Shown: one piece after another, positions 8,251 to 55,237 of the stretch
Position numbering within the stretch: the first letter of the stretch is position 1
Layout: every line of letters begins with the position of its first letter
From: Terriglobia bacterium
GTDB lineage: Bacteria > Acidobacteriota > Terriglobia > Terriglobales > Acidobacteriaceae
DNA: 64,000 bases
Direction of reading: 5' to 3'
Assembly: GCA_041495845.1 (NCBI GenBank)
Contig: JBGQDM010000005.1
Coordinates: 472-64,471, forward strand
Notes under the pieces: model-generated
What the model saw: the letters and a program-made list of their open reading frames with translations, nothing else
The model's database searches: none
Told to the model about the DNA's origin: nothing
Program-made: the position numbers and the translations under genes

Positions 8251-10176
8251 TTACTTCTTGTCCTCTACATCCACATACTCGGCATCAATCACGCCTTCGT
8301 CTTTCTTCTTCGCATCGCCGCCGGAAGTCGCACCCGCGCCCGCTGCTGCTCCTGGCGCCGCGCCCGCCCCCGGTTGTGCTGCCTTGTACATCTGTTCTGC
8401 CAGCTTGTGCGAGGCTTGCGTCAACTGCTCGCGAGCTTTGTCCATGGCTGCCTTGTCGCCGCCTTCCATGGCTTTCTTGGCGTCGGCCACCGCGTTTTCC
8501 ACGTCACCGCGCTCGCTGCCGGAAATCTTGTCGCCATGCTCGCGCAGCATTTTCTCCACGCTATACAGCAGCGTGTCCAGTTGATTGCGCGCTTCAATTT
8601 CCTCGCGCTTGGTTTTGTCCTCAGTCGAGTGGGCATCGGCGTCTTTCGCCATCCGCTCCACTTCTTCCTTGGAAAGTCCCGAAGATGACGTGATCGTAAT
8701 CTTCTGGTCTTTCCCCGTGGCATTGTCCTTCGCGGTCACGTTCAGGATGCCGTTGGCATCAATATCAAACGTGACTTCGATTTGGGGCAATCCTCGCGGC
8801 GCCGGGGGCAGCCCGGTCAGATGGAACTTGCCCAAGGTGCGGTTCTGCCCCGCCATCGGCCGTTCCCCTTGCAGTACGTGCACTTCCACCGAGGTCTGAT
8901 TGTCCGCCGCCGTCGAAAACGTTTCCGACTTCTTCGTCGGGATCGTCGTATTGCGCGGAATCATCGGCGTCGAGACACCGCCCAGCGTCTCAATCGATAG
9001 CGTCAGCGGGGTCACATCCAGCAGCAGCAGGTCTTTGACTTCGCCCTTGAGCACGCCGCCTTGAATGGCCGCGCCCACCGCTACGACTTCATCCGGATTC
9101 ACACCCTTATGCGGTTCCCGGCCAAACAGTTCCTTCACCAGCGCCTGGATGCGTGGCATGCGCGTCTGCCCGCCCACCAGTACCACTTCGTTGATCTTGT
9201 CCGCGGTCACGCCGGCATCGCTCATACACTGCCTGCAAGGCGTCAGCGAACGTTGCAACAGGTCGTCCACCATGGTTTCCAGCTTGGCTCGCGTCAGCTT
9301 CTTTACCAGGTGCTTGGGACCGCTGGCGTCGGCCGTGATGAAGGGCAGATTGATCTCCGTCTCCATAGTGGTGGAGAGTTCAATCTTGGCACGCTCGGCC
9401 GCATCGCGCAGCCGCTGCAGCGCCATCTCATTGCCCTTGTCGCGCAGATCCAGGCCTTCGTCTTTGCGGAACTCGTCAATCAACCAGTCCACGATGCGCT
9501 GGTCAATGTTGTCGCCGCCGAGGTGGGTATCGCCGTTGGTGGCCTTGACCTCAACCACGCCTTCGCCGACTTCAAGAATCGAAATATCAAAGGTGCCGCC
9601 GCCAAAGTCGTAGACGGCAATCATCTCGTCCTTGCCCTTGTCCAGACCGTAGGCCAGCGCCGCCGCTGTTGGCTCGTTGATGATGCGCTTCACATCCAGC
9701 CCGGCAATCTTGCCCGCATCTTTCGTGGCCTGCCGCTGCGCGTCGTTAAAGTACGCCGGCACGGTGATGACAGCTTCCATCACCTTTTCACCGAGATAAT
9801 CCTCAGCTGCCTTCTTCAGCTTCTGCAGCACCAGCGCGGAAACTTCCGGCGGCGTGTAGGGCTTGCCCTGTGCCAACACCACCACGTTGTCGCCCTGCCG
9901 CTCCACCTTGAAGGGCACCATCTTCATCTCTTCATTGACTTCGTCGTAACGGCGCCCCATGAATCGCTTGATCGAAAAGACCGTGTTCTCCGGATTGGTA
10001 ATCGCTTGCCGCTTGGCCACCTGACCCACCAGCCGCTCCCCAGTCTTGGTAAATCCAACCACGCTGGGCGTAGTCCGGCCACCTTCCTCGTTGGCGATGA
10101 CTTTGGGTTCGCCACCTTCCATGACAGCTACGACCGAGTTCGTGGTTCCCAGGTCAATTCCGATAATTTTTGGCAT
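8251..10176 (-). CDS. dnaK: Molecular chaperone DnaK (Hsp70)
   Basis: [18 protein letters not shown]..., DLGGGTFD-like [11 protein letters not shown], and a full-length Hsp70 pattern. The start at 10176 has a GGAGA RBS. Confidence 0.97.
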
Positions 10177-10241
10177 TTTGAGTCTCCACACTGCAAACTA
10201 AGTGCTTTTATTGCATAGATTTAATGTATGGCAATAGAAAC

Positions 10242-10271
10242 ATGATAAGACTTGAGTGTATCGTTGTCAAG
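10242..10271 (-). promoter_or_regulatory. dnaK promoter (TTGACA-N17-TATCAT on minus strand) overlapped by a HAIR-like inverted repeat
   Basis: Minus-strand -35 is the reverse complement of 10265-10270 and -10 is the reverse complement of 10242-10247. CTTGAGT-N7-TGTCAAG lies at 10251-10271. Confidence 0.4.
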
Positions 10272-10309
10272 TCTTGGGAAATGAACTTTTCAGAAGAAGG
10301 GAAATTGAT

Positions 10310-10915
10310 TCAGAGTTCTTCTAGAAAATCGTTGAGCATCCTGCGAAACAGAACTGCCATGGGCTTCCAGTCGCCCTGCATCGCCTGGGCACCCGCCGCT
10401 CCGTACGCGGGGTTGGGCCTGGGACGCAAGCGGACAAAAGGCGGCAGCCCATAACGCATTGCGAGGCTGTTGGCCCAAAGACGCGCAGTGCGGCCGTTCC
10501 CGTTGGCAAAGGGATGGATTCGCACCCACTCGGCATGCACCCAAGCAAAGAGATCGATGATGGCCGCCAGTTGGTCGGCATCAGGTTCCTGGCCGGTCGG
10601 CAGCAGCGCGTCCAACTCGGCGATCAAGGCCTGGAGTTTTGCTTCAAAGCGTGCTAGCTCCGCGGCTACATTTACCGATTCCACGCCATAATTCGCGCCG
10701 ACTCGTACTTGGAGTTTCTCAAGACCTGGTTCGCCGCGAAACGCGCCCACAAATCGCGGGTCGGGCACGTCCAAGCCATTCATAACGAGGGTTTGCCAAC
10801 GCCTTGCCGCTTCTAACGTTGGAGCCTCGCGCCGCTCCGAAGCCCGAACGATTTCCTCCAGGACGCGCGCGAGGTTCTGCCGCAACTGGGGACTGTCCTC
10901 GTCCCAGTTAGGCAC
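10310..10915 (-). CDS. Fic-family protein (putative toxin)
   Basis: Fic motif HPFANGNGRTAR, which is HxFx(D/E)GNGRxxR with Asn at the D/E position. Confidence 0.85.
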   Translation of the reverse strand: MPNWDEDSPQLRQNLARVLEEIVRASERREAPTLEAARRWQTLVMNGLDVPDPRFVGAFRGEPGLEKLQVRVGANYGVESVNVAAELARFEAKLQALIAELDALLPTGQEPDADQLAAIIDLFAWVHAEWVRIHPFANGNGRTARLWANSLAMRYGLPPFVRLRPRPNPAYGAAGAQAMQGDWKPMAVLFRRMLNDFLEEL

Positions 10916-11258
10916 CTAGAAGTTCTCGAATCTTGCTTTGCACGGGCCCTGCTGGCTTGAGTTGTCCCTCGACGAACTGGCCCTCCATCGGCTCGCCCTC
11001 AAGCGGGTCCTCAAGGCTCGCTTCGGCCTCCACGAACGCGGCGATCGCTCGCTGGAATCCAGGATCCTGCTTCCGATAGGCTCGGAGGGCTGCCAAGTTC
11101 GCTTCCAGGCTGCGTTCTTTTCGGCCCCGCCGGCTGAGGTAGCCCTTGATCGCCTCGTTCAGCAGCTGATTGATGGGGCGCCCTTCGACCTTACTGAGGT
11201 TCTTTAGGGCAGCACGCTCTTCAGCGTCTATTCTCAGCGTGAAAGGGATTCTAGCCAT
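10908..11258 (-). CDS. Ribbon-helix-helix (CopG/Arc-like) protein, putative Fic partner/antitoxin
   Basis: N-terminal FTLRIDAEERAALKNLSKVEGRPINQLLNEAIKGYL has the RHH pattern. There is an 8-nt overlap with the Fic start. Confidence 0.55.
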   Translation of the reverse strand: MARIPFTLRIDAEERAALKNLSKVEGRPINQLLNEAIKGYLSRRGRKERSLEANLAALRAYRKQDPGFQRAIAAFVEAEASLEDPLEGEPMEGQFVEGQLKPAGPVQSKIRELLGA

Positions 11259-39102: not shown

Positions 39103-41030
39103 CTTACCTCAAGGGTGCCAACGGTTTCGCTTTCCGGATACAGGTTCCGGATTTCGGCAACGAATTCGGGATCGAGCGAGGGAGAAAACCCTGGCGTTCC
39201 CAGCTGCTTTTTGTCGGTTTGTTCGGGGGTTTTGATCACCACAAGCTTGATCTGATGCACGGCAAGAAATTCGTGGATCCTGGACCTGGGATCGCCTGGC
39301 TCTTCCAGAAAGTCGAACAAAGCGCGCGACGGACTCTTCGATCCGGAGAGGAAGTAGAGTTCGGGCGCATCGGGTGCGGCAAAGATGTATTCACCCTGGC
39401 GATGCTGCTGAATCAGCGAAATCACCCTTTCGTACATTTGACCTTGCGCGGGCTTGACCCGGATTCCGGCGGCACGTGGCAGATGCAATTCGTAGGTCTG
39501 CTGTTCGCCGGTGTTCATCACGCCCATCGCGTTCACGTAGGACGGGGTGACTCGCAACACAAAGAACGCAAGGTAGGTGAGGGCCACGGCGATGCTCAGA
39601 AAGCGGGAGTAGTCAGCATTGGCGGCGATCAGGGCGAACCAGGCGAGTAGGAGGAGCGGGAGAACGTAAACCAGGTAGATCGGCGCGGCGTAGGGATATT
39701 GGATGAGGTTGCACAAAACGGTGGTGGCAACCAGCGCGAAGGCCTGCGCGCTGATTCGGCGGGAGAACGCTGCGACCACGGCGGTTGCCGGGACCAACAA
39801 CACCAGCGCATCCCACAGGAAATGGTAAGTGCCCTTCTGAAACCCGGCGACGACCACGGACGTTGCCAGCAAAACGGCGATAAGAATTTTCGCGTTGCGG
39901 CGGAGCGGCTGGCGCAGATCGCAGGCGGCGACCAGTGTGTAGGTCAGCACTCCGGTGGCGAGCAGCCTCACCCACTTCAAATTGCTTGGTTCGAGCGAAG
40001 CATAGGTCAATCGCTTCGCAGAGAACACAAAGACGCCCTGGAACCAGCTGAGCAGCGAGCCGGTGGCAGCGTAAGGAACCAGGAACAGGACCACGGGTGC
40101 GGCAAAGCCGCCGAGGAGAGCGAGCGCATCGCCAAAGAGACGACGGAAGCGCCGGCTCGGGGCAGTGTAAGTGGCAGCGAATTCCCGCCAGACCAGTAAT
40201 GACACCAAGGCCACACCGGGGATCACGAAGTGGATCCAGTAGCGGGGGGCATGGTTCCAGTGGATGAGTCGCACGAGAAGAAAGACGAAAACAGCGGACG
40301 CGGTGATTGCCACCAAGTTGAAAACGTTCGGGGCAGACCGCTGGTCGGAGCGGCGGTCGAGTTCCTGTTCGCGATAGAGCAGAAACAGCAGTGCGGCGGC
40401 GAGAAAGTAGAGCCCGGCGATCTTGGCGAGGAAAGAGAGCCCGCTGCACCCGCCGGCCACCACCAGCCAGCGACGACTGCCCGACTCCGTGATGCGAGAT
40501 TCGGTGCAGCGAGACTCGGTGAAGCGAAAAAGAGCGAGTACGCCGAATGTAGCAAAGAAGAGGTTGTACCAGGACGGGACCGCCTCGGAGTAATTGGGCA
40601 AACTCATCGCGATGGCGAGCAGCGTGGCCAACGCCGCGGCGCGCTCCGAAGCGAAGCGGCGGGCGAGGTTGAAGACGGCTGGGATCCAGGCAAGAAACAA
40701 CAGGAACACCGGGTAGCGAATCGCGACCAGATTTACGCCGAACACTCGCATGGTGGCGGCGTTCAGCAGGGTCAGGCCACCGCTGTAGAGATCAATGAAA
40801 TCGCGGTGCGGCAGTTCTCCGCGCAGCACGCGCTCGGCGGCCAGCGCGTAGGCGCCAGCATCATGCGGAATCCAACCTCGCTTCAGATAAACGCCACCGT
40901 AGAGTGCTCCCACCGCCAGCAAGGCGCAAACAATCAGCCAGCTCTGCGTCGAATACGGGCGCGGTAGGGACTTCGTGATCTCGGTGCCGGAGCCGATCAC
41001 GCCGGTGTTTGCGGAAGCGGAAGTCGCCAT
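39090..41030 (-). CDS. GT-C fold membrane glycosyltransferase (ArnT/PMT-like)
   Basis: 646 aa with more than 10 predicted TM helices. The first periplasmic loop (HDAGAYALAAERVLRGELPHRDFIDLYSGG) resembles the ArnT/PMT_2 family. Confidence 0.7.
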   Translation of the reverse strand: MATSASANTGVIGSGTEITKSLPRPYSTQSWLIVCALLAVGALYGGVYLKRGWIPHDAGAYALAAERVLRGELPHRDFIDLYSGGLTLLNAATMRVFGVNLVAIRYPVFLLFLAWIPAVFNLARRFASERAAALATLLAIAMSLPNYSEAVPSWYNLFFATFGVLALFRFTESRCTESRITESGSRRWLVVAGGCSGLSFLAKIAGLYFLAAALLFLLYREQELDRRSDQRSAPNVFNLVAITASAVFVFLLVRLIHWNHAPRYWIHFVIPGVALVSLLVWREFAATYTAPSRRFRRLFGDALALLGGFAAPVVLFLVPYAATGSLLSWFQGVFVFSAKRLTYASLEPSNLKWVRLLATGVLTYTLVAACDLRQPLRRNAKILIAVLLATSVVVAGFQKGTYHFLWDALVLLVPATAVVAAFSRRISAQAFALVATTVLCNLIQYPYAAPIYLVYVLPLLLLAWFALIAANADYSRFLSIAVALTYLAFFVLRVTPSYVNAMGVMNTGEQQTYELHLPRAAGIRVKPAQGQMYERVISLIQQHRQGEYIFAAPDAPELYFLSGSKSPSRALFDFLEEPGDPRSRIHEFLAVHQIKLVVIKTPEQTDKKQLGTPGFSPSLDPEFVAEIRNLYPESETVGTLEVRWKP

Positions 41031-41590
41031 GGATTGTCCGCAAAGCTAGCCGGAGGGATGGAAGTTGTCAACGGAGCGCTCGAGCAGCGGAAGCGCGGTG
41101 GTGGCCTTTCTGTCCCCGCCTCGCGCATTGGCTGAATTCGGTGGTGCGAACATTCTGCCTCCCACCCTTGCAAAAAACGCAAGGATGGGGCACCCCCAGG
41201 GTTGCTGGTGCACGCGAAATTCAAGATCAAGGGTGGGCCACCCGCCAAGGCGCAGACAATCAGCCAGCTCTGCGTCGAATACGGGCGCGGTAGGGACCGG
41301 GTGATCTCGGTGCCGTAGCCGATCGCGCCAGTGGTTGCGGAAGCGGAAGTCGCCATGGATTGTCCGCAAAGCTAGCGGTAGGGCGGGAAGTTGTCAACGG
41401 AGCAGGCTGGCAGCGGCGGGCTTCCCGCCGGCGCCTCGCGCCTTCGCTGCATTCGCGGTGCGAAGATTCTGCCTCCCGCCCTTTGCAAAGTGCGCAAAGA
41501 ACGAGGCACCCACGGGTTTGGTGGTGCAAACGAAATTCAAAATCTAAGGGCGGTCCACCCCGCCAAGAGTCAAGGGCGGTCCACCCGCCC
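40921..41590. repeat. Tandem, diverged ~326-bp duplication of the 5' end plus upstream region of the GT-C gene
   Basis: Unit A is 40921-41246 and unit B is 41247-41572, followed by a partial extra gggcggtccacccgcc. The first ~120 bp match best, and both units keep an ATG plus about 37 codons (MATSASA.TG.IG.GTEIT.SLPRPYSTQSWLIVCAL). Confidence 0.8.
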
Positions 41591-42603: not shown

Positions 42604-42617
42604 TCAGCTTCATTGAC
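42604..42617. repeat. Left target-site duplication of the casposon (tcagcttcattgac)
   Basis: Identical 14-mer at 55224-55237, each abutting the outer end of a TIR. Confidence 0.85.
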
Positions 42618-42760
42618 GGGTTGTTGTATGGCGACGGCAAAAGTGCTACACGTTACCAGTTGGTAATCGTTGGTGGGAGCCGGGGTGCGCGCGCGGGCGG
42701 AGTGAGAGCGCGCTGGCGAGTGGGGCGGGGCTCGGGCGGGTGAGAGCGGGCGCTGCGTGG
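42618..42760. repeat. Left terminal inverted repeat
   Basis: The reverse complement equals 55081-55223 at 140/143 positions (hand alignment). All mismatches are at the inner end. Confidence 0.9.
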
Positions 42761-42772
42761 TTTAATGCTGAG

Positions 42773-45700
42773 CTATGCGCCGGGCATCATTAGCGCAGGG
42801 TCCGTAACCTCGATTGTGTCCGCGCCAGCGCCTTTAGCAGAAAACACCGGAGTAAACGTGACCTCTTCTCCAACCTGCAACATCAGTTTGCCCAACCTAG
42901 ACGCCGGGCAGAAAAAACGAGGGTAATCCTTGTTCTCGATGAAGCAATATCCCGGCCTTACCGCTGCCACTCTCCCTTTGAGTCGGAGCGGCTTCACCCT
43001 ATCGGAACCTCTAGGACGAAAATACACCTTATTTGACTCGACATTAGAAAAGTTGCGTCTAGCACACTCCGCGAACACTTCCTGCGCATCACTGAACTGG
43101 CTGTTCATAAAAAGCATCCCGCCGAGCACTGCAATGTAACGTGGATCACGAAAACCGTAAAGGCTTCCGATCCGAATGGTGCTGATTGCCGTACTGTACG
43201 ATTCGCCCGTTCCTAGTAACGCAAGCGCATAAACAATGCAAGCACGGTACTCATCGGGTTCGGAAATCACTGCAGGCTTGATGACTTCTATTGTCTTTTG
43301 GGGCTCGTTCCTCTGCAAGTAGACGCGCCCCAGAACGTAGCGCGCTATGTTTCCCTCTTTGTCAGCCCGAACCGCCCGCTCTAATTCATAAATGCGCTCC
43401 GGATCGTTTCCCAAAAACTCTTGCACTTGTGCAGAAACAAGAAGTAAAGACTCGCGACTGTTGATTGACCGCAACCCTTCACTAATAATCTGTTCACATT
43501 TCGACAGGTACTCTGCCGAATCACCCTTCTCGCGCTTTGCCCAGTCCAAATACAGCGTCGCCAGGCCCGAATAGGCAAACTCGTCCTTGCTGGACATCGA
43601 CAAGCACTGCCGGAAGGACCTTTCCGCTTGAAGCAGTCTCTTTCGGCCTATTTCAACGCTAGCCGTTGTACGTGCAAGCTGCGCCAGGATCAATCCTTTT
43701 GTGTGGTGAAGAACCCGAACATCCTTACTGATTTCAATGGCGCTGTCGATCTGGCCAAGCGCCAATTCCGGCCTTCCTTCGTGCAGCAACATGCGGGCGT
43801 AATGCTGCTTGACATAGGGGCTTTGCGGGTCCTTCTTGCAGGCAGCTTCGAAAAATCTGGTTTTGCCGTCAAAACTGCTCAGGCTTGCGACGACGTTGTC
43901 AGATCGCACAAATTGTTCAAATGCGCTTTGATCTGCTCCATAGTTGAGGTTTAGCGCTTCGATTGATCGTTGAAGAAGGTTCTCTTTTTCAGCTGAATCG
44001 CCGCAACGCTCCCAAACGATTGCCGCAATAGCCCTGTGCCGCGCTCTCCCGCCGTACCGCCCGAGTGTCGAATCAATCAGATCATAGATAACAACCCCTT
44101 CGGTCTGGTTCTTTGTCTCTTCATACATTGTTGCTAGATCGCTACCCAGCAAGCTGGCCAATAAAACGTCGCGGACATACGCGCCGTGTGTGTAAAACCC
44201 GCACACGGCCAAATATAAGCGTCTGGACAGGTCGTTACCGATACCCTTAAATTCATCGATCAGAATTGCATCGAAATTATTGTCTTCCGTTGCTTCGCGA
44301 AGTGTGACCAGCAATTCTTTGCCGTGTTTGCTCTCTATTACTGCAAACTGCATGTCAGGAGTCAGGTTCGCCAGCTTGTTAAGTTCTCCGTTTTGCTTCA
44401 ACGTCTCCAACAGCCGCATTATCTCGGCATCGCTCAGGCTCTCAAGCTCGTACTCCTTAGGGAAATAACGGCCACGTGACTGCCTCCATTCGTTCTTCCT
44501 TTCTCCCATCACTAAGAACGCAGGGCTTTTCAGTCTTCTTAATCGGTCAAAAACCCTGTGGAGGTCGCGCGAATGGTCAGCCGCGTTGTCAACAAAGAAA
44601 AACTTTTTATCTTGCCCAAAAAGAGAAGCTGCGAACTCCAAGTCTCCGTCAATCACCGACGCTCCGGCCTTGTGGTAAAAAATGTGGCCCGCACGATCTG
44701 AAACCAATTGAGTCGCCAGCATGGTCAGCAGTGTTGTTGTTCCATAACCTGCCGGTCCGATAATGATGGCTGAGCCGCTAGAACTGCTGGTGCTTGTATA
44801 AAAATCTAAAAGCTGGTCATAGACTTCTTCCTGAATGTCGCGCTCAAATGGGATTTTCTTAGCAGCCAGCGTCCAGTTTGGCCGATCTCCCCTGAAAAAG
44901 GGTTTCGTGTTGGGCTGTTCACTGAAGTCCGCAGCGTTCACGTATCTCCAGTGAGCGAGCAGCCTCAGGACGGCAGTAGGATTGCGCTCGTATTCATCAG
45001 CGAGAGGGGCCGGAATCTTGTGCTTTGTTTTTCCGAGTAAGTCTATAGTATAAGCTGACTTATCCAGCACAACGGACGCAGTACCGACGAAATCCGCGAA
45101 GCTAGCATCTATCGTTTCCACGCCCTTGCGAGTCAGGATTTCGGCATTTAGAGCTTGTGTACGACGGGCGACCCTGTACGAGGGAAGGAGTGGTGATGGG
45201 TAAAATTCCTGGCGCATTTCCTCCAAGACTAGCTTCCAGTTGGGGTCACGGTTCGAGTAGCCAACGTACAAGATTGTTGAGGTTGCAAACTCCTTCTTTA
45301 GCAGTTCGAACAGCATTCGGCGTGGGTCCCGAAAGGTCACGTAGTCACTCTGGGTGACTACGATGAATGGTTTGCCGATTCCTGAGAAGCGCCCATGCAG
45401 GTGGTAAACGGGAACATCGAAGCGGGGGTCGATTGGGAATAGTTCAGGGGTGATTCCGAAGGGAACGGGCTTCAACGGAGGACTTGGGTTCAAGTTGTAA
45501 GCAGTTTCAATAACGTTATCGTAGTTTGTTGTGAAAATCGCCTTCCATCGAATTCTCGTTAGCCATTGAAAAAGTTCGTCGGGCTGGAGGTCGCCAACCT
45601 GCGATTTGATAAAGATCTCAAGCTCAGATCTACCTATCCGGAGTTCAACAATTTCAGCCACTTCCGCCAGATCATATTCGCCGCCGGTGTCAATATTGAA

Positions 45701-45883
45701 CTGTGCAGCCATGCGACGGGCCAATTCCTGCCCATCAGGTGCAGGTTTGCCTTCCTTGTCCAGAATGTGCTCCCCGAGACCTGCGCCCACGAACAATACA
45801 CAGTTCCCGGACTCCAGGGCGGTTCTCAATCCGAGCGGAACGATAACGCTTTCGCTGGCAGAGACGGAGGGTGGTGTTGCCAT
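42773..45883 (-). CDS. SIR2-like domain / STAND-type NTPase / TPR / C-terminal cold-shock-like domain protein (Avs5-like putative anti-phage defence)
   Basis: N-terminal SIR2_2 pattern (CVLFVGAGLG, IFTTNYDNVIE, VYHLHGRF). P-loop-like IIIGPAGYGTTTLL. Long helical/TPR-like C-terminal half. The last ~70 aa (KGRVAAVRPGYCFIENKDYPRFFCPAS...GEEVTF) are CSD-like. Confidence 0.78.
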   Translation of the reverse strand: MATPPSVSASESVIVPLGLRTALESGNCVLFVGAGLGEHILDKEGKPAPDGQELARRMAAQFNIDTGGEYDLAEVAEIVELRIGRSELEIFIKSQVGDLQPDELFQWLTRIRWKAIFTTNYDNVIETAYNLNPSPPLKPVPFGITPELFPIDPRFDVPVYHLHGRFSGIGKPFIVVTQSDYVTFRDPRRMLFELLKKEFATSTILYVGYSNRDPNWKLVLEEMRQEFYPSPLLPSYRVARRTQALNAEILTRKGVETIDASFADFVGTASVVLDKSAYTIDLLGKTKHKIPAPLADEYERNPTAVLRLLAHWRYVNAADFSEQPNTKPFFRGDRPNWTLAAKKIPFERDIQEEVYDQLLDFYTSTSSSSGSAIIIGPAGYGTTTLLTMLATQLVSDRAGHIFYHKAGASVIDGDLEFAASLFGQDKKFFFVDNAADHSRDLHRVFDRLRRLKSPAFLVMGERKNEWRQSRGRYFPKEYELESLSDAEIMRLLETLKQNGELNKLANLTPDMQFAVIESKHGKELLVTLREATEDNNFDAILIDEFKGIGNDLSRRLYLAVCGFYTHGAYVRDVLLASLLGSDLATMYEETKNQTEGVVIYDLIDSTLGRYGGRARHRAIAAIVWERCGDSAEKENLLQRSIEALNLNYGADQSAFEQFVRSDNVVASLSSFDGKTRFFEAACKKDPQSPYVKQHYARMLLHEGRPELALGQIDSAIEISKDVRVLHHTKGLILAQLARTTASVEIGRKRLLQAERSFRQCLSMSSKDEFAYSGLATLYLDWAKREKGDSAEYLSKCEQIISEGLRSINSRESLLLVSAQVQEFLGNDPERIYELERAVRADKEGNIARYVLGRVYLQRNEPQKTIEVIKPAVISEPDEYRACIVYALALLGTGESYSTAISTIRIGSLYGFRDPRYIAVLGGMLFMNSQFSDAQEVFAECARRNFSNVESNKVYFRPRGSDRVKPLRLKGRVAAVRPGYCFIENKDYPRFFCPASRLGKLMLQVGEEVTFTPVFSAKGAGADTIEVTDPALMMPGA

Positions 45884-45943: not shown

Positions 45944-47470
45944 TTAGGCTTCTTGGGGCCACAGGCTAACGAGCTGTGCCAGTGCGTGCCAGTGCCTGGG
46001 ATGCGGACGCCGCCTGCCTGCGCGGATGTCGGTCGCATAGGGGAGCGAGATGCCCAGCGTTGATGCAATTGCGGACACGGGGAAGTCTCGGAGGGCGGGC
46101 TGAATCTTTTCCTGGTATCCGCTCTCGGTCAGCCAATTTGGATGTTCTGAGGGCTGCCAGGCCTTCAGTGCGGCGGCATGACGGAGGCGGCTGGCTGAGC
46201 GTAGGGCTTCTGCCTCCGGAGTATGCGTGGCTACTCGCCCGAGCCGCGCAATCTCGATCATTCTCTTGCTGGCCTCAGCCCCGGCACACGAAGCGCAATG
46301 GATCTTTCCTTCCTTGAGTGCGACGCCGCAAGTGCGACAAATCTTCTCGGGTGCTGGAGCTGGTTTCGTGACAGGCGCGTACGCTTCGCCTCTTGCTTCG
46401 CTTCGGTGGCGCTGCGTCAAGCGCGTAGCGGGAACGCTCTTGCGCGCGGCTTTGGAAGTGGAACTCCAGAGCGCGCGAGCAACCCACTCAGCTAGTGGTG
46501 CAACGGCACGACCCCAAGTAGGCGCAGTTTCGGATAGTCGGGTGGCGAATGACCCGATGAGGCGGCAGTTGCCATCTCGCCGCTCGAAGAACCATTCCCG
46601 CTTGAGCGGTTGGCGGGTGATCCAGTCCAGCAGGAATGCGTCTACCTGAGGTCGGACCGGCTCCATGAGATCGCAAGCGAGGCTGTCGCGGTTCGGGGTG
46701 TCAACATGCAACATTCCAAGACCGGGATCGAGTCCAAGAGCCGCCGCCGCAAGGCGAGCTTCGGATTCCAACAGCCCGTAGAGGAAGTTCAACATGGCCC
46801 CGGACGGGTTCGCTGCCAGTCGCGGCGATCCCGAGAGGGGAGACTGACGGGTTCCGAAGGTTCGCCAGTGGCCAGGTACACGCGGCATGTCGTTCTTCGG
46901 AAAACTAATTGGGAGATCGCGCCACGCGGACCAGTAGACGGCACCGGCCTGGGCTTCGACCAAGCGAACTGCCGGAATGGTTTCCGCATTCGCCAGTTGA
47001 CTGCGAAGATTGGAGATCTCATCGGCGCTTTCAGAATCGAGCAGCTTTTCGCGGACGACTTTTTCCTGCCCAAGAAGTTTTTGGGAGATCAACTCCCGCG
47101 CGATGCGTTGGGCATCGCCGGAGTGAATCGCCAACGCTTGCGCGCGTCGCAGGCGGGCATCGGAAGGGCGAACGGGCCCCGTGGTGGCCAGCACCGAGCC
47201 GTCGCGTTCCAGCATTACGAAAGCTGCGTCCTGGTCGGCAAGCCAGCGCAGCGCTTCAAGTGTGATGAAGCCGTCGCTCCCAATCATGACCAGCCTCTTT
47301 AGGCCGTGATTCACGCGGGGCAAGCGAATTGTCCGGCGCTCGTCCGCGATTCCATCGTGCAAAAGTAAATGCCCGGCATGAACCTGGACGCGGATGCCGT
47401 AGCCATTCAAGACCAGCACGCCAGATTTGCGGATGGCGGAGGACTGAGGTAGGTTTTGCGAAGCCGTCAT
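45944..47470 (-). CDS. cas1: Stand-alone Cas1-family integrase (casposase) with C-terminal zinc ribbon and HTH
   Basis: Cas1 signature: VEAQAGAVYWSAW (Glu), NPSGAMLNFLYGLLESEARLAAAALGLDPGLGMLHVD (His), SLACDLMEPVRPQVD (Asp/Glu). C-terminal CRTC...CASC and an HTH-like LGISLPYATDIRAG. The start at 47470 has a GGAGAG RBS. Confidence 0.85.
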   Translation of the reverse strand: MTASQNLPQSSAIRKSGVLVLNGYGIRVQVHAGHLLLHDGIADERRTIRLPRVNHGLKRLVMIGSDGFITLEALRWLADQDAAFVMLERDGSVLATTGPVRPSDARLRRAQALAIHSGDAQRIARELISQKLLGQEKVVREKLLDSESADEISNLRSQLANAETIPAVRLVEAQAGAVYWSAWRDLPISFPKNDMPRVPGHWRTFGTRQSPLSGSPRLAANPSGAMLNFLYGLLESEARLAAAALGLDPGLGMLHVDTPNRDSLACDLMEPVRPQVDAFLLDWITRQPLKREWFFERRDGNCRLIGSFATRLSETAPTWGRAVAPLAEWVARALWSSTSKAARKSVPATRLTQRHRSEARGEAYAPVTKPAPAPEKICRTCGVALKEGKIHCASCAGAEASKRMIEIARLGRVATHTPEAEALRSASRLRHAAALKAWQPSEHPNWLTESGYQEKIQPALRDFPVSAIASTLGISLPYATDIRAGRRRPHPRHWHALAQLVSLWPQEA

Positions 47471-47555
47471 GGAGGTTTCTCTCCTTCGGCGGTCAGGGCT
47501 GTTCGTCTGCTCCAACAGGCGGGCAGCCCGTATAAACTGTTGATAAGTATACTAC

Positions 47556-47567: not shown

Positions 47568-47782
47568 AGTACACCCATTAACACATGCCTTTCCGGAACT
47601 TGCGTCCAATCACGTCGAGGTTTATCCTTGTGTTCTGCGGTACAGGTCCTTGGCCATTAAAGAGAACCTTTGGGGTAAGAACTACCGCCTCTAGGTCTTG
47701 GACTAAAGAATTGGGCATCACTGGATAGGACAGAGCCCAGCCATCGGACACCGCCCGTGGCACTTCACGTTGAGGTGCTGCG

Positions 47783-48010
47783 GTGTCTTCAAGATCCACG
47801 ATCCCAATCCTCACAGAACACAAGATTCTTCTGAGTCGCCAGGAGGCCGCGCAGCTACTCGGCATCAGCTGGCGCATGTTGGACGAGCTCGTGAAGCGGG
47901 GCGAGATTCGCATCCGCCGCGTGGGCGGTCCCATTCGCGGTCGTGTTCTGTTTTCCAGACTTGAGCTACAGCGATTTGCGGAAGGAACTGAAACTTCGAA
48001 CAGGGGGTAA
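47783..48010 (+). CDS. Excisionase/MerR-type helix-turn-helix DNA-binding protein
   Basis: LLSRQEAAQLLGISWRMLDELVKRGEIRIRRVG is the HTH_17-like pattern. GTG start. Confidence 0.6.
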   Translation: MSSRSTIPILTEHKILLSRQEAAQLLGISWRMLDELVKRGEIRIRRVGGPIRGRVLFSRLELQRFAEGTETSNRG

Positions 48011-48016
48011 CTTCTC

Positions 48017-48562
48017 GTGGCGCGCAAACAGCGCGAGCGCCAGAAGGCCCCCAGCAAGGTTTCTTCTAGCGCCCGCAATACCAAAACTCGGCTCATTTTA
48101 CCATCCCGACTCTCCGAGCGCAGCTTCGCTGCCCGTGATCGTGCCATGCACGTCCTGGGGGATATGCGGCATGGCGCTTCGCTTTCGCGTGCTGCCCGCG
48201 ATCATGGAGTAAGCGTACGAACAATCAGACGCTACGTCGGCGGGGCGCTCTTACAAGAGCGTGCGGGCGGGAGAATCCGCGCGACCAAAAGCGACCGCTT
48301 TGTCCGCTACCTGCAACTCCCAGGCCGGCTCGGACCCATCGAACAAAGGGTTCGCGGATCAAGACAGGCTAGTGAAGCCGCGAGATACAAGGCAGCGCTC
48401 AACAGGCGCCTTCGCGGTGACCGTGGCGCGCTCGCGCCTTGGCACGGAAAGAAGATCGCGGGCATTGAACTCATAACAGACGCGGCCACTCTGAAGAGCC
48501 TCGCCGAGAGAGATCTCCTTCCTTACTCTCTCTACCGATCCCTTTCTGGCGGTGGGGCATGA
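48017..48562 (+). CDS. Hypothetical protein with HTH segment
   Basis: ASLSRAARDHGVSVRTIRRYV is an HTH-like segment. The gene is in an operon with the flanking genes, with a 4-nt overlap downstream. Confidence 0.5.
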   Translation: MARKQRERQKAPSKVSSSARNTKTRLILPSRLSERSFAARDRAMHVLGDMRHGASLSRAARDHGVSVRTIRRYVGGALLQERAGGRIRATKSDRFVRYLQLPGRLGPIEQRVRGSRQASEAARYKAALNRRLRGDRGALAPWHGKKIAGIELITDAATLKSLAERDLLPYSLYRSLSGGGA

Positions 48563-48855
48563 TCGCACTCAGCGGAGTGTCGCGTCGTTCCCGTGGGTGC
48601 TGTGTTTTCTGCGGATCGCGAAAACAACTCCAAGAGCACCATCTCGGCGGTCGCAACCACGCCCGTCACTTCACAATCACCCTCTGCCGTGAACATCACG
48701 AAGCAGTCACGCTCGCTATCACCAGAGCGGGGGTAAACATGCGCTATACCAGCGACAAAATGGAACGCTCAAGGCGCGCGCGCCAAGCCGCATACGTGTT
48801 TCTTTGGTTCCTGGATGACATCGTTTTCACACCAACCTGCGAGGAGACAGCATGA
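48559..48855 (+). CDS. HNH-like endonuclease-fold protein
   Basis: CVFCGSRKQLQEHHLGGRNHARHFTITLCREHHEAV matches the pattern CxxC...HH...N...CxxHH. Confidence 0.55.
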   Translation: MIALSGVSRRSRGCCVFCGSRKQLQEHHLGGRNHARHFTITLCREHHEAVTLAITRAGVNMRYTSDKMERSRRARQAAYVFLWFLDDIVFTPTCEETA

Positions 48856-49052
48856 TGAACAACGGGCGAGTCGAGCACGTTTTAACGCAGCGACTGGAAG
48901 ACGGCTACGTGCGAACGCTGTGCGGGAGAATCATTTTCAGGCCAAACCCTATAGAGACATACCGTGAACCAACATATTTCAGGTACAACCATCCAAATTG
49001 CCAAGACTGCTTGCGGAAGCACTTCGCCAAGACTGGAAGAAAACATGACTGA
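48852..49052 (+). CDS. Small hypothetical protein (66 aa, Cys/His-containing)
   Basis: Translationally coupled on both sides (ATGA at 48852-48855, ATGACTGA at 49045-49052). No known motif. Confidence 0.4.
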   Translation: MMNNGRVEHVLTQRLEDGYVRTLCGRIIFRPNPIETYREPTYFRYNHPNCQDCLRKHFAKTGRKHD

Positions 49053-51963
49053 CAAAACACACGATATCTTCGTGCGGGCCTTGGCGGTCACCGCGAAACA
49101 GACAACGAAGAACACTGGAAGGCCAGCTTCCGAAGACAAGCCAAAGTGGGCGGAACATGCCCTTGTGTTTGATACAGAGACACGCATCACTGCCGATCAA
49201 TCTCTTACTTTCGGCGTGTACCGGTTGTGCTCGTTGGCGAACGGAATTTACAAGTTCACCGAAGAGGGTATTTTCTATGCTGACGATCTGCCATCGAAAG
49301 AGCGGAAGGTGCTACATGCCTACGCGCAAACGGCGGTTTCAGATGCAGCATCCTTCCCGCCGCGATTCCCGCTGTATTCCCGTTCTGAGTTTATGAAACG
49401 CGTCTTCTGGCCACAGATCAAACACAAGAGTGCGCTCATCGTGGGATTCAATCTCCCTTTCGATCTGGCGCGACTCGCGCTGGACTGGAGCAGAGGCAAC
49501 AAGGGCGAATGGTCGCTCACGATGTCACGATATCCAAACGGTACCGAGAACCTAAATTACCCTCGTATTCTCATCACGCCGATTGACAGCAAGAAAGCCT
49601 TCATCCGGCTGGCAACGCCGTGGAAGCCAACGGACTGGAAGAATAACGGCCGCGGTAATTTCCTGGACCTGCGCACGCTCGGCTGGGCGCTCTTCAACAA
49701 AGCGTTTTCGCTCAAGACCCTCTGCGATGAACTCAAGACAGCACAAGAAAAGCTAAACCATGATCCGACGGGTAAGGTCACTCCCGAGGAAATCGAATAC
49801 GCCCGCCAGGACGTTCGCTGCACCGTGGACGCGCTCAACGCGCTGAAGCGGGAGTTTGATAAACACCCCATCGACCTGAAACCCTCCGATACGTACTCCC
49901 CAGCATCCGTAGCCAAAGCCTACCTGGACGAGATGGGAATCATCAGGCCAGCTGAGAAGTTCAATGTTTCTGATGAAATGCTCGGAATTACCATGCAGAG
50001 CTATTACGGAGGTCGCTCCGAAACTCGCATCCGCTGCTGTGAGGTGCCCGTCGTGCCCGTAGATTTCACCAGCGAATATCCGAGCTGTTGCGCGCTCTTA
50101 GGTCTATTCGACGTTCTCACAGCTGCGAGTGTGAGCTTTGATGACGATACCGAGAAGGTACGGGGATTTCTAAAACGCGTCACTCTCAAACGCTGTCTTG
50201 ATCCGGAATTGTGGGGGCACCTCAGGTTCTTCGCCTTGGTGCAACCTGAGAACGACATCCTGCCCGTGCGCACGATGTACAACGAAGTCACGCGAAATAT
50301 CGGGAACAACTACCTCACATCCGACACGCCGATATGGTTTGCCGGCCCCGACCTGATTGCATCCATGCTCCGCACAGGCAAAATCCCGCACATCATCCGC
50401 GCGATCCGCATGGTACCGCATGGCAAGCAGGCCGGAATGCGAAGTGTAAACCTCCGTGGCATGGTTGAAATTGATCCGTACAAGGACGATCTATTTTGTA
50501 AAGCAATCGAACAACGGAAACTGCACAAATCCGACGGATCGCTCCATTACTGGCTGAAGATCTTCGCGAACTCCATATACGGGTTTTTCGTTGAACTGAA
50601 CCCGGAAATTCAGGGCAAGCCCGCACCGCTCACAGTCTATTCGGGGGAGAAGACATTTCGGGACCACTCGGATGTCGTCGAGAATCCCGGTCGCTGGTTC
50701 TTTCCCCCGTTAGCCTCACTCATCACCTCCGGCGGCCGTCTGCTGCTCGCCATAGCAGAGTCGAATGTGGAAGAGAAGAAAGGCGCATATCTGTTCTGCG
50801 ATACGGATTCTCTCGCAATCGTAGCTTCCCAGACGGGAGGGGATCTCCGCATTCCAGGCAGTAAGGGTGTCAGGGTTCTTTCGTGGGCCGAAGTGCAGTC
50901 CATCGTTGACAAGTTCGCTGCCCTGAATCCATACGACCGGAAGCTCGTGAAAGGCTCAATCCTAAATCTTGTGAATGCAAACTACGTTGACTCAGACCCG
51001 CAAAACCCGCAGCGGCAGTTGTACGGGTACAGCATTGCAGCGAAGCGCTATGCCCTTTACGAGAGGATAGGCAAGAACGACATCAAGATCGTCGATCCGA
51101 AAGCGCATGGCATTGGGTTCTTGTATCCACCGAAAGACTCGCCGAAAGACTGGAAAGAAGATGTTCCGCAATGGATTTACGAAATGTGGGACTACGTGCT
51201 GCGTGGCGCTCTCAAGCTAAAACGCAAATCCCCGTCTTGGCTGGATATTCCACAAATGATGCGCCTGACGATCACTACGTACAACGTTTTGAAAATGCTC
51301 GGACAATGGGAAGACGCTCGCCCGTACAACTTCCTGTTCTTGCCGATGGTCGACCCAACCTTTGGTTACGCGTTTTACCGACGGGCAAACGACAAAATTC
51401 TGCTGGTCGCCCCATTTTCGTCTAAGCAGGAGCGCTGGTTTGCAACGGAGTGTGTGAATATTCACAACGGCAAGAAGTACCGAATGGTGGACTGCACCAA
51501 AGAAAAGAAGCCGCCGTACAACGTGGTCTTTCCTTCGCAATTCGCCCGCCTGGTAATCGAATACCAGGAGCATCCCGAGGCGAAGAGCCTTGCGCCTGAT
51601 GGCACGCCGTGCAAGGCGCAGACGCGTGGGCTTCTACGGCGGGCGCACATAACAGCCGGTGAGTTTCGCTATGTGGGCAAAGAAACAGATCGCAAATGGG
51701 AAGAAGGCGACGACGTCAGTGTGTTGGAATTCAGCACTACCGAATACGGCAGGGCGAAAAGCGTAGTCGCTGACCCTTCGATACGCGATGAAATTCGGAC
51801 GATCGGCGTCCGCAAGACGATGGAATTGACGAAAATGAGTCAGCACACGATAGAAAAGCTGGTTCGTGGCGAAGCCGTGAAGCGCAAAACTCGCGAGCAC
51901 GTACTGAAAGCACTTCAAGCATGCAAAGTGCTCATGGAGTTTGCGAACCAAAACCGCAGATAG
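49045..51963 (+). CDS. polB: Family-B DNA polymerase with 3'-5' exonuclease domain
   Basis: Exo I LVFDTET, Exo II GFNLPFDLARL, Exo III YARQDVRCT, YxGG (SYYGGRSE), motif A DFTSEYPS, motif B KIFANSIYGF, motif C LFCDTDSLA, KxY (AAKRYALY). The start was moved to the ATG at 49045. Confidence 0.9.
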   Translation: MTDKTHDIFVRALAVTAKQTTKNTGRPASEDKPKWAEHALVFDTETRITADQSLTFGVYRLCSLANGIYKFTEEGIFYADDLPSKERKVLHAYAQTAVSDAASFPPRFPLYSRSEFMKRVFWPQIKHKSALIVGFNLPFDLARLALDWSRGNKGEWSLTMSRYPNGTENLNYPRILITPIDSKKAFIRLATPWKPTDWKNNGRGNFLDLRTLGWALFNKAFSLKTLCDELKTAQEKLNHDPTGKVTPEEIEYARQDVRCTVDALNALKREFDKHPIDLKPSDTYSPASVAKAYLDEMGIIRPAEKFNVSDEMLGITMQSYYGGRSETRIRCCEVPVVPVDFTSEYPSCCALLGLFDVLTAASVSFDDDTEKVRGFLKRVTLKRCLDPELWGHLRFFALVQPENDILPVRTMYNEVTRNIGNNYLTSDTPIWFAGPDLIASMLRTGKIPHIIRAIRMVPHGKQAGMRSVNLRGMVEIDPYKDDLFCKAIEQRKLHKSDGSLHYWLKIFANSIYGFFVELNPEIQGKPAPLTVYSGEKTFRDHSDVVENPGRWFFPPLASLITSGGRLLLAIAESNVEEKKGAYLFCDTDSLAIVASQTGGDLRIPGSKGVRVLSWAEVQSIVDKFAALNPYDRKLVKGSILNLVNANYVDSDPQNPQRQLYGYSIAAKRYALYERIGKNDIKIVDPKAHGIGFLYPPKDSPKDWKEDVPQWIYEMWDYVLRGALKLKRKSPSWLDIPQMMRLTITTYNVLKMLGQWEDARPYNFLFLPMVDPTFGYAFYRRANDKILLVAPFSSKQERWFATECVNIHNGKKYRMVDCTKEKKPPYNVVFPSQFARLVIEYQEHPEAKSLAPDGTPCKAQTRGLLRRAHITAGEFRYVGKETDRKWEEGDDVSVLEFSTTEYGRAKSVVADPSIRDEIRTIGVRKTMELTKMSQHTIEKLVRGEAVKRKTREHVLKALQACKVLMEFANQNRR

Positions 51964-52174: not shown

Positions 52175-52204
52175 CGCGCTGGCGGGGGCGGGGCTCGGGC
52201 GGGG
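52175..52204. repeat. Internal partial copy of the inner TIR segment (same orientation as left TIR)
   Basis: cgcgctggcg-ggggcggggctcgggcggg matches 42709-42740 at 29 nt, apart from a 3-nt indel. Confidence 0.6.
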
Positions 52205-52216
52205 AAGGTTCTAAGT

Positions 52217-54994: not shown

Positions 54995-55080
54995 ATGCTT
55001 CACCTCATACTGGCCGGACATGCGGAGGGAAACCGTGGAGATTCTGCACCCTCGCCTGGTCACTGTCAAGTCCTCGGGGA

Positions 55081-55223
55081 CCGCGCAGCGCCCGCTCTTA
55101 CTCGCCCGAGCCCCGCCCCACTCGCCAGCGCGCTCTCACTCCGCCCGCGCGCGCACCCCGGCTCCCACCAACGATTACCAACTGGTAACGTGTAGCACTT
55201 TTGCCGTCGCCATACAACAACCC
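55081..55223. repeat. Right terminal inverted repeat
   Basis: Reverse complement of 42618-42760 (140/143). Confidence 0.9.
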
Positions 55224-55237
55224 TCAGCTTCATTGAC
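55224..55237. repeat. Right target-site duplication (tcagcttcattgac)
   Basis: Identical to 42604-42617. Confidence 0.85.

Follow-up and report, generated by a model that had tools for sequence, protein, structure and literature searches.

A casposon of a Terriglobia bacterium encodes a complete family-B DNA polymerase of mosaic architecture

The polB gene and its casposon

A 64,000-nucleotide stretch of the genome of a soil-dwelling Terriglobia bacterium (Acidobacteriota; GenBank assembly GCA_041495845.1, contig JBGQDM010000005.1, positions 472 to 64,471 of the forward strand), here called the window, carries a casposon whose polB gene codes for a 972-amino acid (aa) family-B DNA polymerase (PolB). 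The open frame at 49045-51963 (+ strand) gives a translation of 972 residues followed by a stop. The longest open reading frame (ORF) of this frame begins further 5', at GTG 48964; since the alignments of homologs begin at residue 4-6 of the product that starts at ATG 49045, and since this ATG and the stop codon of the 66-aa gene before it overlap (ATGACTGA), polB most likely begins at 49045. The element is 12,606 bp long, with a G+C content of 52-56% inside versus about 61% outside. It is bounded by terminal inverted repeats (TIRs) and, outside these, by a target-site duplication (TSD), and contains a gene for the casposase Cas1, which is divergent from the polB operon. The genes of the operon code, in this order, for a 75-aa helix-turn-helix (HTH) protein, a 181-aa HTH protein, a 98-aa HNH protein, a 66-aa Cys/His protein and PolB; the HNH and polB genes overlap the stops or starts of their neighbours. 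The features that define the element are as follows:

49045..51963, + strand: polB, 972-aa family-B DNA polymerase (P0001); open frame, full-length homology to casposon PolBs, AlphaFold2 (AF2) model
42618..42761, + strand: left TIR, 144 nt, starting GGGTTGTTGTATGGCGACGGCAAAAGTGCT; repeat search, terminal GGG in 27/27 related elements
55080..55223, - strand: right TIR, 144 nt, 98% complementary to the left TIR; repeat search
42604..42617, no strand: left copy of the TSD, 14 bp, TCAGCTTCATTGAC; direct repeat flanking the TIR
55224..55237, no strand: right copy of the TSD, 14 bp; direct repeat flanking the TIR
45944..47515, - strand: casposase Cas1, 523 aa, with CxxC..CxxC and a C-terminal tail; PF01867, E 2e-39
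47783..48010, + strand: 75-aa Xis/MerR-like HTH protein, first gene of the operon; recurs in 6 loci
48017..48562, + strand: 181-aa conserved HTH protein with a hydroxyl residue at position 154; HTH_23, 73-76 loci including that of Aciduliprofundum boonei
48559..48855, + strand: 98-aa HNH endonuclease, start overlapping the previous stop (ATGA); PHROG HNH matches, 53-59 loci including that of A. boonei
48852..49052, + strand: 66-aa Cys/His-rich protein, overlapping the polB start; ORF list, 2-3 loci only

A first-pass annotation, made from the sequence of the window, had claimed a complete 972-aa family-B DNA polymerase encoded by the element. The open frame and the intact exonuclease and polymerase sites described below bear out the first part of this claim, and the TIRs, the TSD and Cas1, which define a bona fide casposon around the gene, bear out the second. 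The AF2 model of the protein has a pLDDT of 88.4 and a pTM of 0.89.

An intact set of exonuclease and polymerase motifs

All eight motifs named in the first-pass annotation were found in PolB at the positions given there and in canonical order:

49168..49182, + strand: Exo I, FDTET at residue 42 (D43, E45), 42 residues from the N-terminus; motif and alignment
49450..49464, + strand: Exo II, NLPFD at residue 136 (N136, D140); motif and alignment
49798..49812, + strand: Exo III, YARQD at residue 252 (Y252, D256); motif and alignment, aligned to Exo III of phi29
50002..50013, + strand: YxGG motif, YYGG at residues 320-323, between the exonuclease and polymerase domains; aligned to Y226-G229 of phi29
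50062..50085, + strand: motif A, DFTSEYPS at residue 340 (D340); motif, alignment and hhalign
50557..50583, + strand: motif B, KIFANSIYG at residue 505 (K505); motif, alignment and hhalign
50797..50811, + strand: motif C, CDTDS at residue 585 (D586, D588); motif and alignment
51043..51051, + strand: KxY motif, KRY at residues 667-669; invariant in the family, same tripeptide in Pol II and RB69

Across 40 diverse relatives, aligned at 31-65% identity, the exonuclease residues D43/E45, N136/D140 and Y252/D256, as well as D340/S343/Y345/P346 of motif A, K505/N509/Y512/G513 of motif B, D586-T587-D588 of motif C and K667-R668-Y669, are invariant or at least 90% conserved, and the conservation of the catalytic residues was unchanged when the archaeal A. 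boonei prototype was added. The family consensus around motif C in the 40-sequence alignment is FCDTDSMAIV. The motif set is far beyond chance, and the PolB fold is recognised by Foldseek with a probability of 1.00 to many PolBs. A substituted Asp or a failed motif alignment had been named beforehand as grounds for giving up the claim; no Asp is substituted, and the profile comparisons uphold the alignment of the motifs.

PolB belongs to the family 2/3 casposon lineage

Family 1 casposons code for His1-like protein-primed PolBs (pPolBs); the PolBs of families 2 and 3 have been described as 'typical RNA-primed' enzymes with a C-terminal HTH, kin to archaeal PolB3 (PMC4046053, PMC4104785). The PolB of AciBoo-C1 is covered by arCOG04926 (PMC4104785), and the 'PolB_CDTDS' cluster names the same protein; Kazlauskas 2020 placed this lineage outside 'PolBmain', as a cluster between two major groups (PMC7544198). 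Starting from the casposon Cas1 sequences in the supplementary alignment of Krupovic 2014, we searched the protein database and went on to the genomic loci of the matches. For A. boonei the match was exact, and for NitAL212-C1 it was a Nitrosomonas Cas1 with 94% identity; both loci have the same layout as the window casposon, each with a large unannotated ORF. In BLASTP comparisons the window PolB is 30% identical to the AciBoo-C1 PolB over about 950 aa (E 9e-107) and 29% identical over its full length to the PolB of the NitAL212-type Nitrosomonas casposon (E 4e-108). A phylogeny, which the first-pass annotation had proposed as a check, was computed by maximum likelihood with three more casposon PolBs and six reference polymerases; all casposon PolBs, that of the window included, form one clade (SH-aLRT 97), in which the acidobacterial PolBs stand on branches of their own, apart from an archaeal-plus-Nitrosomonas group. 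A three-group tree, which does not discriminate between pPolB and RNA-primed kinship of the lineage, was not used for that question.

The window PolB is thus a member of the casposon-specific family 2/3 lineage (arCOG04926, 'PolB_CDTDS'), and its motif C, CDTDS at residues 585-589, is of the type that names the PolB_CDTDS lineage. The Cas1 of the element appears, by BLASTP, nearest to the family 3 casposases (NitAL212, 33% identity, E 1e-47; HenMar, E 5e-33), with E-values of about 1e-23 for family 2 and 7e-14 for family 1. Membership of family 1 was examined on the traits of that family, a His1/His2-like pPolB, a compact Cas1 without extra domains and a thaumarchaeal host, and rejected, because PolB groups with family 2/3 and not with His1 and because Cas1, of 523 aa and with C-terminal extras, is least like that of family 1. 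The first-pass annotation had left the type of priming undecided and held that it would fix the casposon family. The lineage can now be assigned, but priming by RNA or by protein is too simple a criterion for the family, given that the polymerase of families 2 and 3 is itself pPolB-like in appearance, as described in the next section.

The AciBoo-C1 PolB (family 2, A. boonei T469) has the same motif set, the same layout with the exonuclease first and the same insertions after motifs A and B, and it likewise carries a long C-terminal extension and a basic tail; the HTH and HNH partners and the divergent Cas1 are shared as well. It differs from the window PolB in its archaeal host, its length (899 versus 972 aa), its motif C (MDTDS) and its separate branch in the tree. 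The NitAL212-C1-type element (family 3, Nitrosomonas) resembles that of the window in having a bacterial host, a 14-bp TSD and TIRs that start with a G run. Exo I of the Nitrosomonas PolB, however, lies at residue 72 (43 in the window PolB), the protein groups with the archaeal sequences in the PolB tree, and the NitAL212-type Cas1 has its zinc-binding domain at the N-terminus (PMC4046053), whereas the CxxC..CxxC of the window Cas1 is C-terminal.

A front half resembling protein-primed polymerases

Exo I lies at residue 33-72 in casposon PolBs, at 9-35 in pPolBs and at 114-156 in RNA-primed PolBs (rPolBs). Motifs B and C are 79-82, 73-94 and 52-61 aa apart in the three groups, respectively, and motifs A and B 165-182, 120-137 and 74-149 aa apart (165 aa in the window PolB versus 74 in Pol II). 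From the position of Exo I and the spacing of the motifs it follows that the rPolB N-terminal domain is absent. Moreover, insertions are present at both the TPR1 and the TPR2 position of pPolBs, as judged by position and by alignment to phi29; the first-pass annotation had pointed to them as characters to look for:

50107..50472, + strand: alpha/beta insertion, about aa 355-476 (about 120 aa), at the pPolB TPR1 position; DSSP, hhalign with phi29, PRD1 and His1
50596..50688, + strand: long beta-hairpin insertion, aa 518-548, at the pPolB TPR2 position; DSSP, E518-533/E536-548

The second of these appears as a clean 29-residue insertion (519-547), after motif B, in the alignment with E. coli Pol II, and is aligned to TPR2 of phi29 by both phmmer and hhalign. 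With the family profile, hhalign gave probabilities of 83-93% over 229-347 collinear columns against phi29, PRD1, His1 and Bam35, the aligned stretch taking in Exo III, motif A, the TPR1 region, motif B, the TPR2 region and motif C, versus 70% over 67 columns for Pol II and 3% for RB69; a lineage-wide profile led by the archaeal prototype gave the same pattern. The pPolB model PF03175 matches 25 of 40 family members at E<=0.01 (best E 6e-12), whereas the rPolB models PF00136 and PF03104 match none of the 40, and a six-frame search of the whole genome with PF00136 was negative, with control genomes positive. NCBIfam gave nothing useful for the window PolB. The only PDB sequence match of the window PolB in phmmer is phi29 polymerase (E 0.007), and in Foldseek searches of the PDB four phi29 polymerase entries come out best (E about 1e-14, target-normalised TM-score (TMt) 0.52-0.55), versus E about 3e-12 or weaker and TMt 0.3-0.4 for Pol II, Pol alpha and archaeal PolBs. 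The best viral matches in Foldseek are the His1, tectivirus and GA-1 polymerases (E 2e-17 to 1e-15). No conserved clamp-binding motif was found in PolB by a search that detected the QLGLF motif of the Pol II control.

The phi29 gp2, PRD1 P1, Bam35 and His1 polymerases (PF03175) share with the window PolB the lack of an N-terminal domain, YxGG and insertions at the TPR1 and TPR2 positions; they are its best-covered structural neighbours, and they serve replicons which, like the casposon, have TIRs and reiterated terminal bases; the casposon differs from these replicons in integrating through Cas1. The rPolBs (E. coli Pol II, RB69 gp43, archaeal PolB3 and Pol alpha) share with it the catalytic motifs, KRY and its spacing and the likeness of the palm around motif C, but in these enzymes Exo I is preceded by an N-terminal domain of 110-155 aa, the TPR2 position has no insertion and clamp-binding tails are present, and they are detected by PF00136, which does not detect the window PolB. 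The front half of PolB therefore departs from the label 'typical RNA-primed' given in the literature to the family 2/3 lineage: as far as profiles, spacings and the position and phi29 alignment of the insertions allow it to be classed, it appears pPolB-like.

These observations bear on a rival explanation, in which PolB is an ordinary RNA/DNA-primed enzyme, kin to PolB3, that would extend DnaG primers on an excised or looped-out single-stranded casposon, its pPolB-like features being convergent or ancestral remnants that leave priming unaffected. The absence of the rPolB N-terminal domain (Exo I at residue 43) and of a clamp-binding motif, the insertions at the TPR1 and TPR2 positions, the Pfam counts (0/40 versus 25/40), the preference of hhalign for pPolBs in both probability and aligned length and the place of the lineage outside 'PolBmain' in Kazlauskas 2020 all argue against it. 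It draws its evidence from the features considered in the following section, and on balance we hold it to be unlikely.

A mosaic with rPolB-like traits and a lineage-specific C-terminal extension

Several results weigh against a pPolB-like, clamp-free enzyme, and most of them favour the RNA/DNA-primed rival. The KRY tripeptide and the long spacer from motif C to KxY are rPolB-like, matching Pol II and RB69. The A. boonei prototype PolB matches no Pfam PolB model, the Nitrosomonas PolB has a weak match to PF00136 only, over motif B, and the match of the window PolB itself to PF03175 is below threshold (22.2 bits versus a gathering cut-off of 25.8). The best PDB sequence match of the family profile is the palm of Pol alpha. 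Pol alpha is also the top Foldseek match of the A. boonei PolB model, which has a pLDDT of 86.6 and the same layout as the window PolB, although the E-values are tied (Pol alpha 1.2e-13 versus phi29 3e-13) and target coverage alone favours phi29 (TMt 0.56 versus 0.38); for the archaeal prototype it is coverage and architecture, and not the Foldseek E-values, that set phi29 apart from Pol alpha. The lineage is a clade separate from the pPolBs and not one within them, and published phylogenies put the family 2/3 PolBs beside archaeal PolB3 and the PolBs of Thermoproteales as 'typical RNA-primed' enzymes (PMC4046053, PMC4104785). PolB is a mosaic, then, and not simply a pPolB, in agreement with the cluster that Kazlauskas 2020 placed between the two major groups.

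The mosaic extends to the C-terminal part. After KxY there are 276-305 residues in casposon PolBs versus 77-200 in the reference polymerases, so that the window PolB differs from pPolBs not only in lying outside their clade and in its KRY and long spacer but also in about 300 extra C-terminal residues:

51112..51759, + strand: thumb and lineage-specific C-terminal extension, about aa 690-905; mixed alpha/beta in the model
51760..51960, + strand: C-terminal HTH-like tail, about aa 906-972; helices 911-920, 922-929 and 933-940 in the model

The tail has a weak match to the LacI HTH with the family profile, and matches to HTH_3 were found in 3 of the 40 members. Krupovic 2014 described the C-terminal HTH of PolB as similar to the HTH at the C-terminus of Cas1. 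In our comparisons, the Cas1 tail of the window scored z 5.9, 3.3 and 2.6 against the PolB tails of some relatives and z 0.5 against its own PolB tail, a likeness that is significant for some relatives but not for this copy, and BLAST found no match between the C-terminal tails of PolB and Cas1 of the window element. Some members (P0193, P0221 and P0251) end in zinc-ribbon-like CxxC...CxxC tails in place of the HTH tail; the DNA-binding tail module therefore appears exchangeable.

Relatives, hosts and element ends

Relatives of about 970 aa numbered at least 1,894 in a word-indexed search, nearly all of them annotated as hypothetical, and an exhaustive phmmer search gave 4,850 50%-identity clusters at E<=1e-3, 1,256 of them at E<=1e-30. 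Acidobacteriota account for all of the best 80 genomic loci. Most of these come from Terriglobia; one metagenome-assembled genome of Binatia and one cultured strain, Tunturiibacter gelidiferens, are among them. The homolog in Tunturiibacter is 48% identical to the window PolB. No relative of PolB was found in phage and plasmid collections. The genome of the window has a single copy of polB. Among related genomes PolB is present in just 8 of 61, some of which hold several full and fragmentary copies; such patchy presence and multiple or fragmentary copies are as expected for a mobile element. One related genome (G006, contig C1) has ten PolB matches, several of them fragments of 170-600 aa, within 2.41-2.45 Mb and 2.82-2.83 Mb, and these clusters look like pile-ups of intact and decaying casposons.

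Cas1 is linked to PolB in 71 of 86 loci, the 181-aa HTH protein in 73-76 and the HNH protein in 53-59. The arrangement of Cas1 opposite HTH-HNH-PolB recurs in about 70 of 80 loci and also in A. boonei and Nitrosomonas, and both the 181-aa HTH and the HNH protein match A. boonei genes. A gammaproteobacterial Cas1 locus (L098) was not used, as there is no PolB there; its Cas1 (10001-10984), 51% identical to the NitAL212 casposase, adjoins kinase/PP2C/VWA and DUF4365 genes and may be a decayed or domesticated casposase.

TIRs and TSDs were mapped in 27 related elements; for AciBoo-C1, the same procedure returned the published length of 9,084 bp exactly. Of the 27 elements, 22 have a TSD of 14 bp, and GGG is found at both ends in all 27, with a terminal consensus of GGG(G)TAGTGTATAGCGACGGCAAAAGTGCT. 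In nearly all TSDs of these casposons either TTGAC adjoins the TIR or GTCAA stands at the far end, which suggests that a -35-like hexamer is strongly preferred as the target. AciBoo-C1 is inserted at tRNA-Pro, unlike the window casposon, whose site is intergenic and contains TTGAC.

PolB as a putative replicase of the element

Our preferred reading, to which we give a probability of roughly 0.75, is that the window codes for an intact, proofreading family-B polymerase of a complete casposon, of the family 2/3 lineage and of mosaic architecture, and we infer that it acts as a clamp-free replicase. Domain scans detected no primase, helicase or clamp domain among the genes of the element. PolB would copy the whole element by strand displacement, independently of clamp and helicase; the predicted TPR2-type hairpin would provide strand displacement and processivity, as in phi29, and through its HTH-like tail the enzyme would stay tethered to the conserved TIRs. 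As a leading guess, synthesis would begin at the conserved terminal GGG(G) or beside it, without an RNA primer from the host primase. It counts against this scheme that strand displacement and processivity would both depend on a hairpin known from prediction.

A more modest role can be imagined, in which the casposon moves by cut-and-paste and is copied by the host replisome, PolB being limited to the repair of the two 14-nt gaps left by Cas1 integration, or to translesion synthesis or other repair. Cas1 integration does leave staggered gaps that need filling, as established for the A. boonei casposase, and both the single copy in the genome of the window and the lack of replication accessory genes in the element would fit. 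A proofreading enzyme of 972 aa, with a predicted processivity and strand-displacement hairpin and a predicted DNA-tethering tail, far exceeds this need, however. Moreover, in thousands of elements, archaeal as well as bacterial, polB is strictly conserved and occurs in linkage with Cas1, and there are multi-copy genomes among the relatives. We regard a role confined to repair as very improbable.

What could prime PolB

For a replicase of the whole element, protein priming is favoured by the pPolB-like front half, the linear, TIR-bounded template and the invariant terminal G run. Sliding-back initiation requires reiterated terminal bases such as a G run, and the PRD1 terminus, GGGG (GGGGATACG), is like the terminal G run of casposons. 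The primer may thus be a protein, with sliding-back on the G run as in PRD1, a suggestion that we make tentatively. Several points speak against it. Domain scans found no recognisable terminal protein among the genes of the element. The conserved small genes of the operon look DNA-binding (HTH) and nuclease (HNH). The primer-independent PolBs (piPolBs) have TPR1 and TPR2 without a terminal protein (PMC5695915). Finally, the terminal G run may be present solely because Cas1 needs it. The 181-aa HTH protein offers only a lead: its position 154, in a motif L-x-T-D, is T in 71 of 73 homologs and [STY] in 73 of 73, and the homologs with this hydroxyl residue span the A. boonei and Nitrosomonas casposons. 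Genes for terminal proteins usually lie just upstream of the pPolB gene, and by its place upstream of polB the 181-aa protein may be put forward as a positional candidate.

It is also possible, if doubtful, that the primer is a DNA 3'-OH provided at the element boundary by the co-translated HNH nuclease or by Cas1, with strand-displacement copying from there. We think it unlikely that the primer is host RNA, as the RNA/DNA-primed rival would have it, although the absence of a terminal protein among the element genes also speaks for that account, and still less likely that synthesis starts de novo.

De novo synthesis would be expected if PolB were a primer-independent polymerase that makes its own DNA primers, as the piPolBs of pipolins do. 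The parallels are several: piPolBs are divergent family-B enzymes, also with TPR1 and TPR2, and the bacterial elements in which they are found are integrated, replicate themselves, bring defence genes along as cargo and have no terminal protein or primase (PMC5695915, PMC11551731), as is the case here, where neither a primase nor a recognisable terminal protein was detected. Pipolins, however, have tyrosine recombinases and direct repeats, whereas the window element has Cas1, TIRs and a TSD. Furthermore, motif C is DTD and not TTD, KxY is KRY and not KTRG with an upstream KH, and the casposon PolBs form a clade of their own. With the TTD and KH-X8-KTRG signatures absent, and DTD and KRY invariant in the family, we rejected membership of the piPolBs, and a piPolB-like mode of action seems improbable.

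A wider hypothesis, which we consider doubtful at present, is that the whole family 2/3 lineage, with the thousands of members of its acidobacterial branch, represents a fourth PolB assemblage, with pPolB architecture, primed by protein at GGG(G) through sliding-back and free of host primase. The primer would be either the 181-aa HTH protein, through position 154, or PolB itself, through the roughly 300 aa of its C-terminal extension, and soil Acidobacteriota would then be the largest known reservoir of self-replicating casposons.

Place among known casposons

The element type and the polymerase lineage have both been published, and the window PolB is a member on an undescribed acidobacterial branch. 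The titles and abstracts of the literature searched mention no large acidobacterial casposon radiation. Neither an explicit pPolB-type front half of the family 2/3 polymerase nor any biochemistry of a casposon PolB was found in that literature; for want of the latter, the replication step of 'self-synthesising' transposition is still a drawing. Casposons are thought to be ancestral to the CRISPR adaptation machinery. The window PolB is a well-defined bacterial and mesophilic representative, with mapped ends (TIRs and TSD), a confident model and a huge alignment, and its phi29-like features predict a clamp-free, strand-displacing enzyme. Should this prove true, a decade-old 'RNA-primed' label would be corrected, the mode of copying of the element would be explained, and a new enzyme for long-read or isothermal amplification, with a built-in DNA-binding tail, could be at hand. 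If PolB is an ordinary primer extender, the finding amounts to a good annotation of a common soil mobile element.

Cargo and other features of the window

The cargo of the window casposon, which includes a 1,036-aa SIR2-STAND-TPR protein (42773-45883), is specific to this copy, as compared with the related loci that were fetched. In Nitrosomonas (CP011451; L099, 206-3990), LRR-Roc-COR and TIR-domain genes lie beside the casposon PolB, placed there by adjacency to PolB and not by the ends of the element. Defence-type genes therefore recur with casposons. A 189-aa ORF upstream of cas1 (47578-48147, - strand), R/S-rich and overlapped by the plus-strand ORF of the 75-aa Xis/MerR-like protein, is conserved in none of 82 related loci; it is therefore probably spurious, and was dropped. 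The inner part of the TIR recurs inside the element as a 23-nt copy about 220 bp downstream of polB (52185-52207), which pairs with 55097-55119 (91% complementary) and may lie where the conserved core gives way to the right-hand cargo. A tandem duplication of 326 bp, whose copies have diverged (90% over 171 nt), lies at 40920-41572, outside the element on its left side, at the start of a glycosyltransferase gene.

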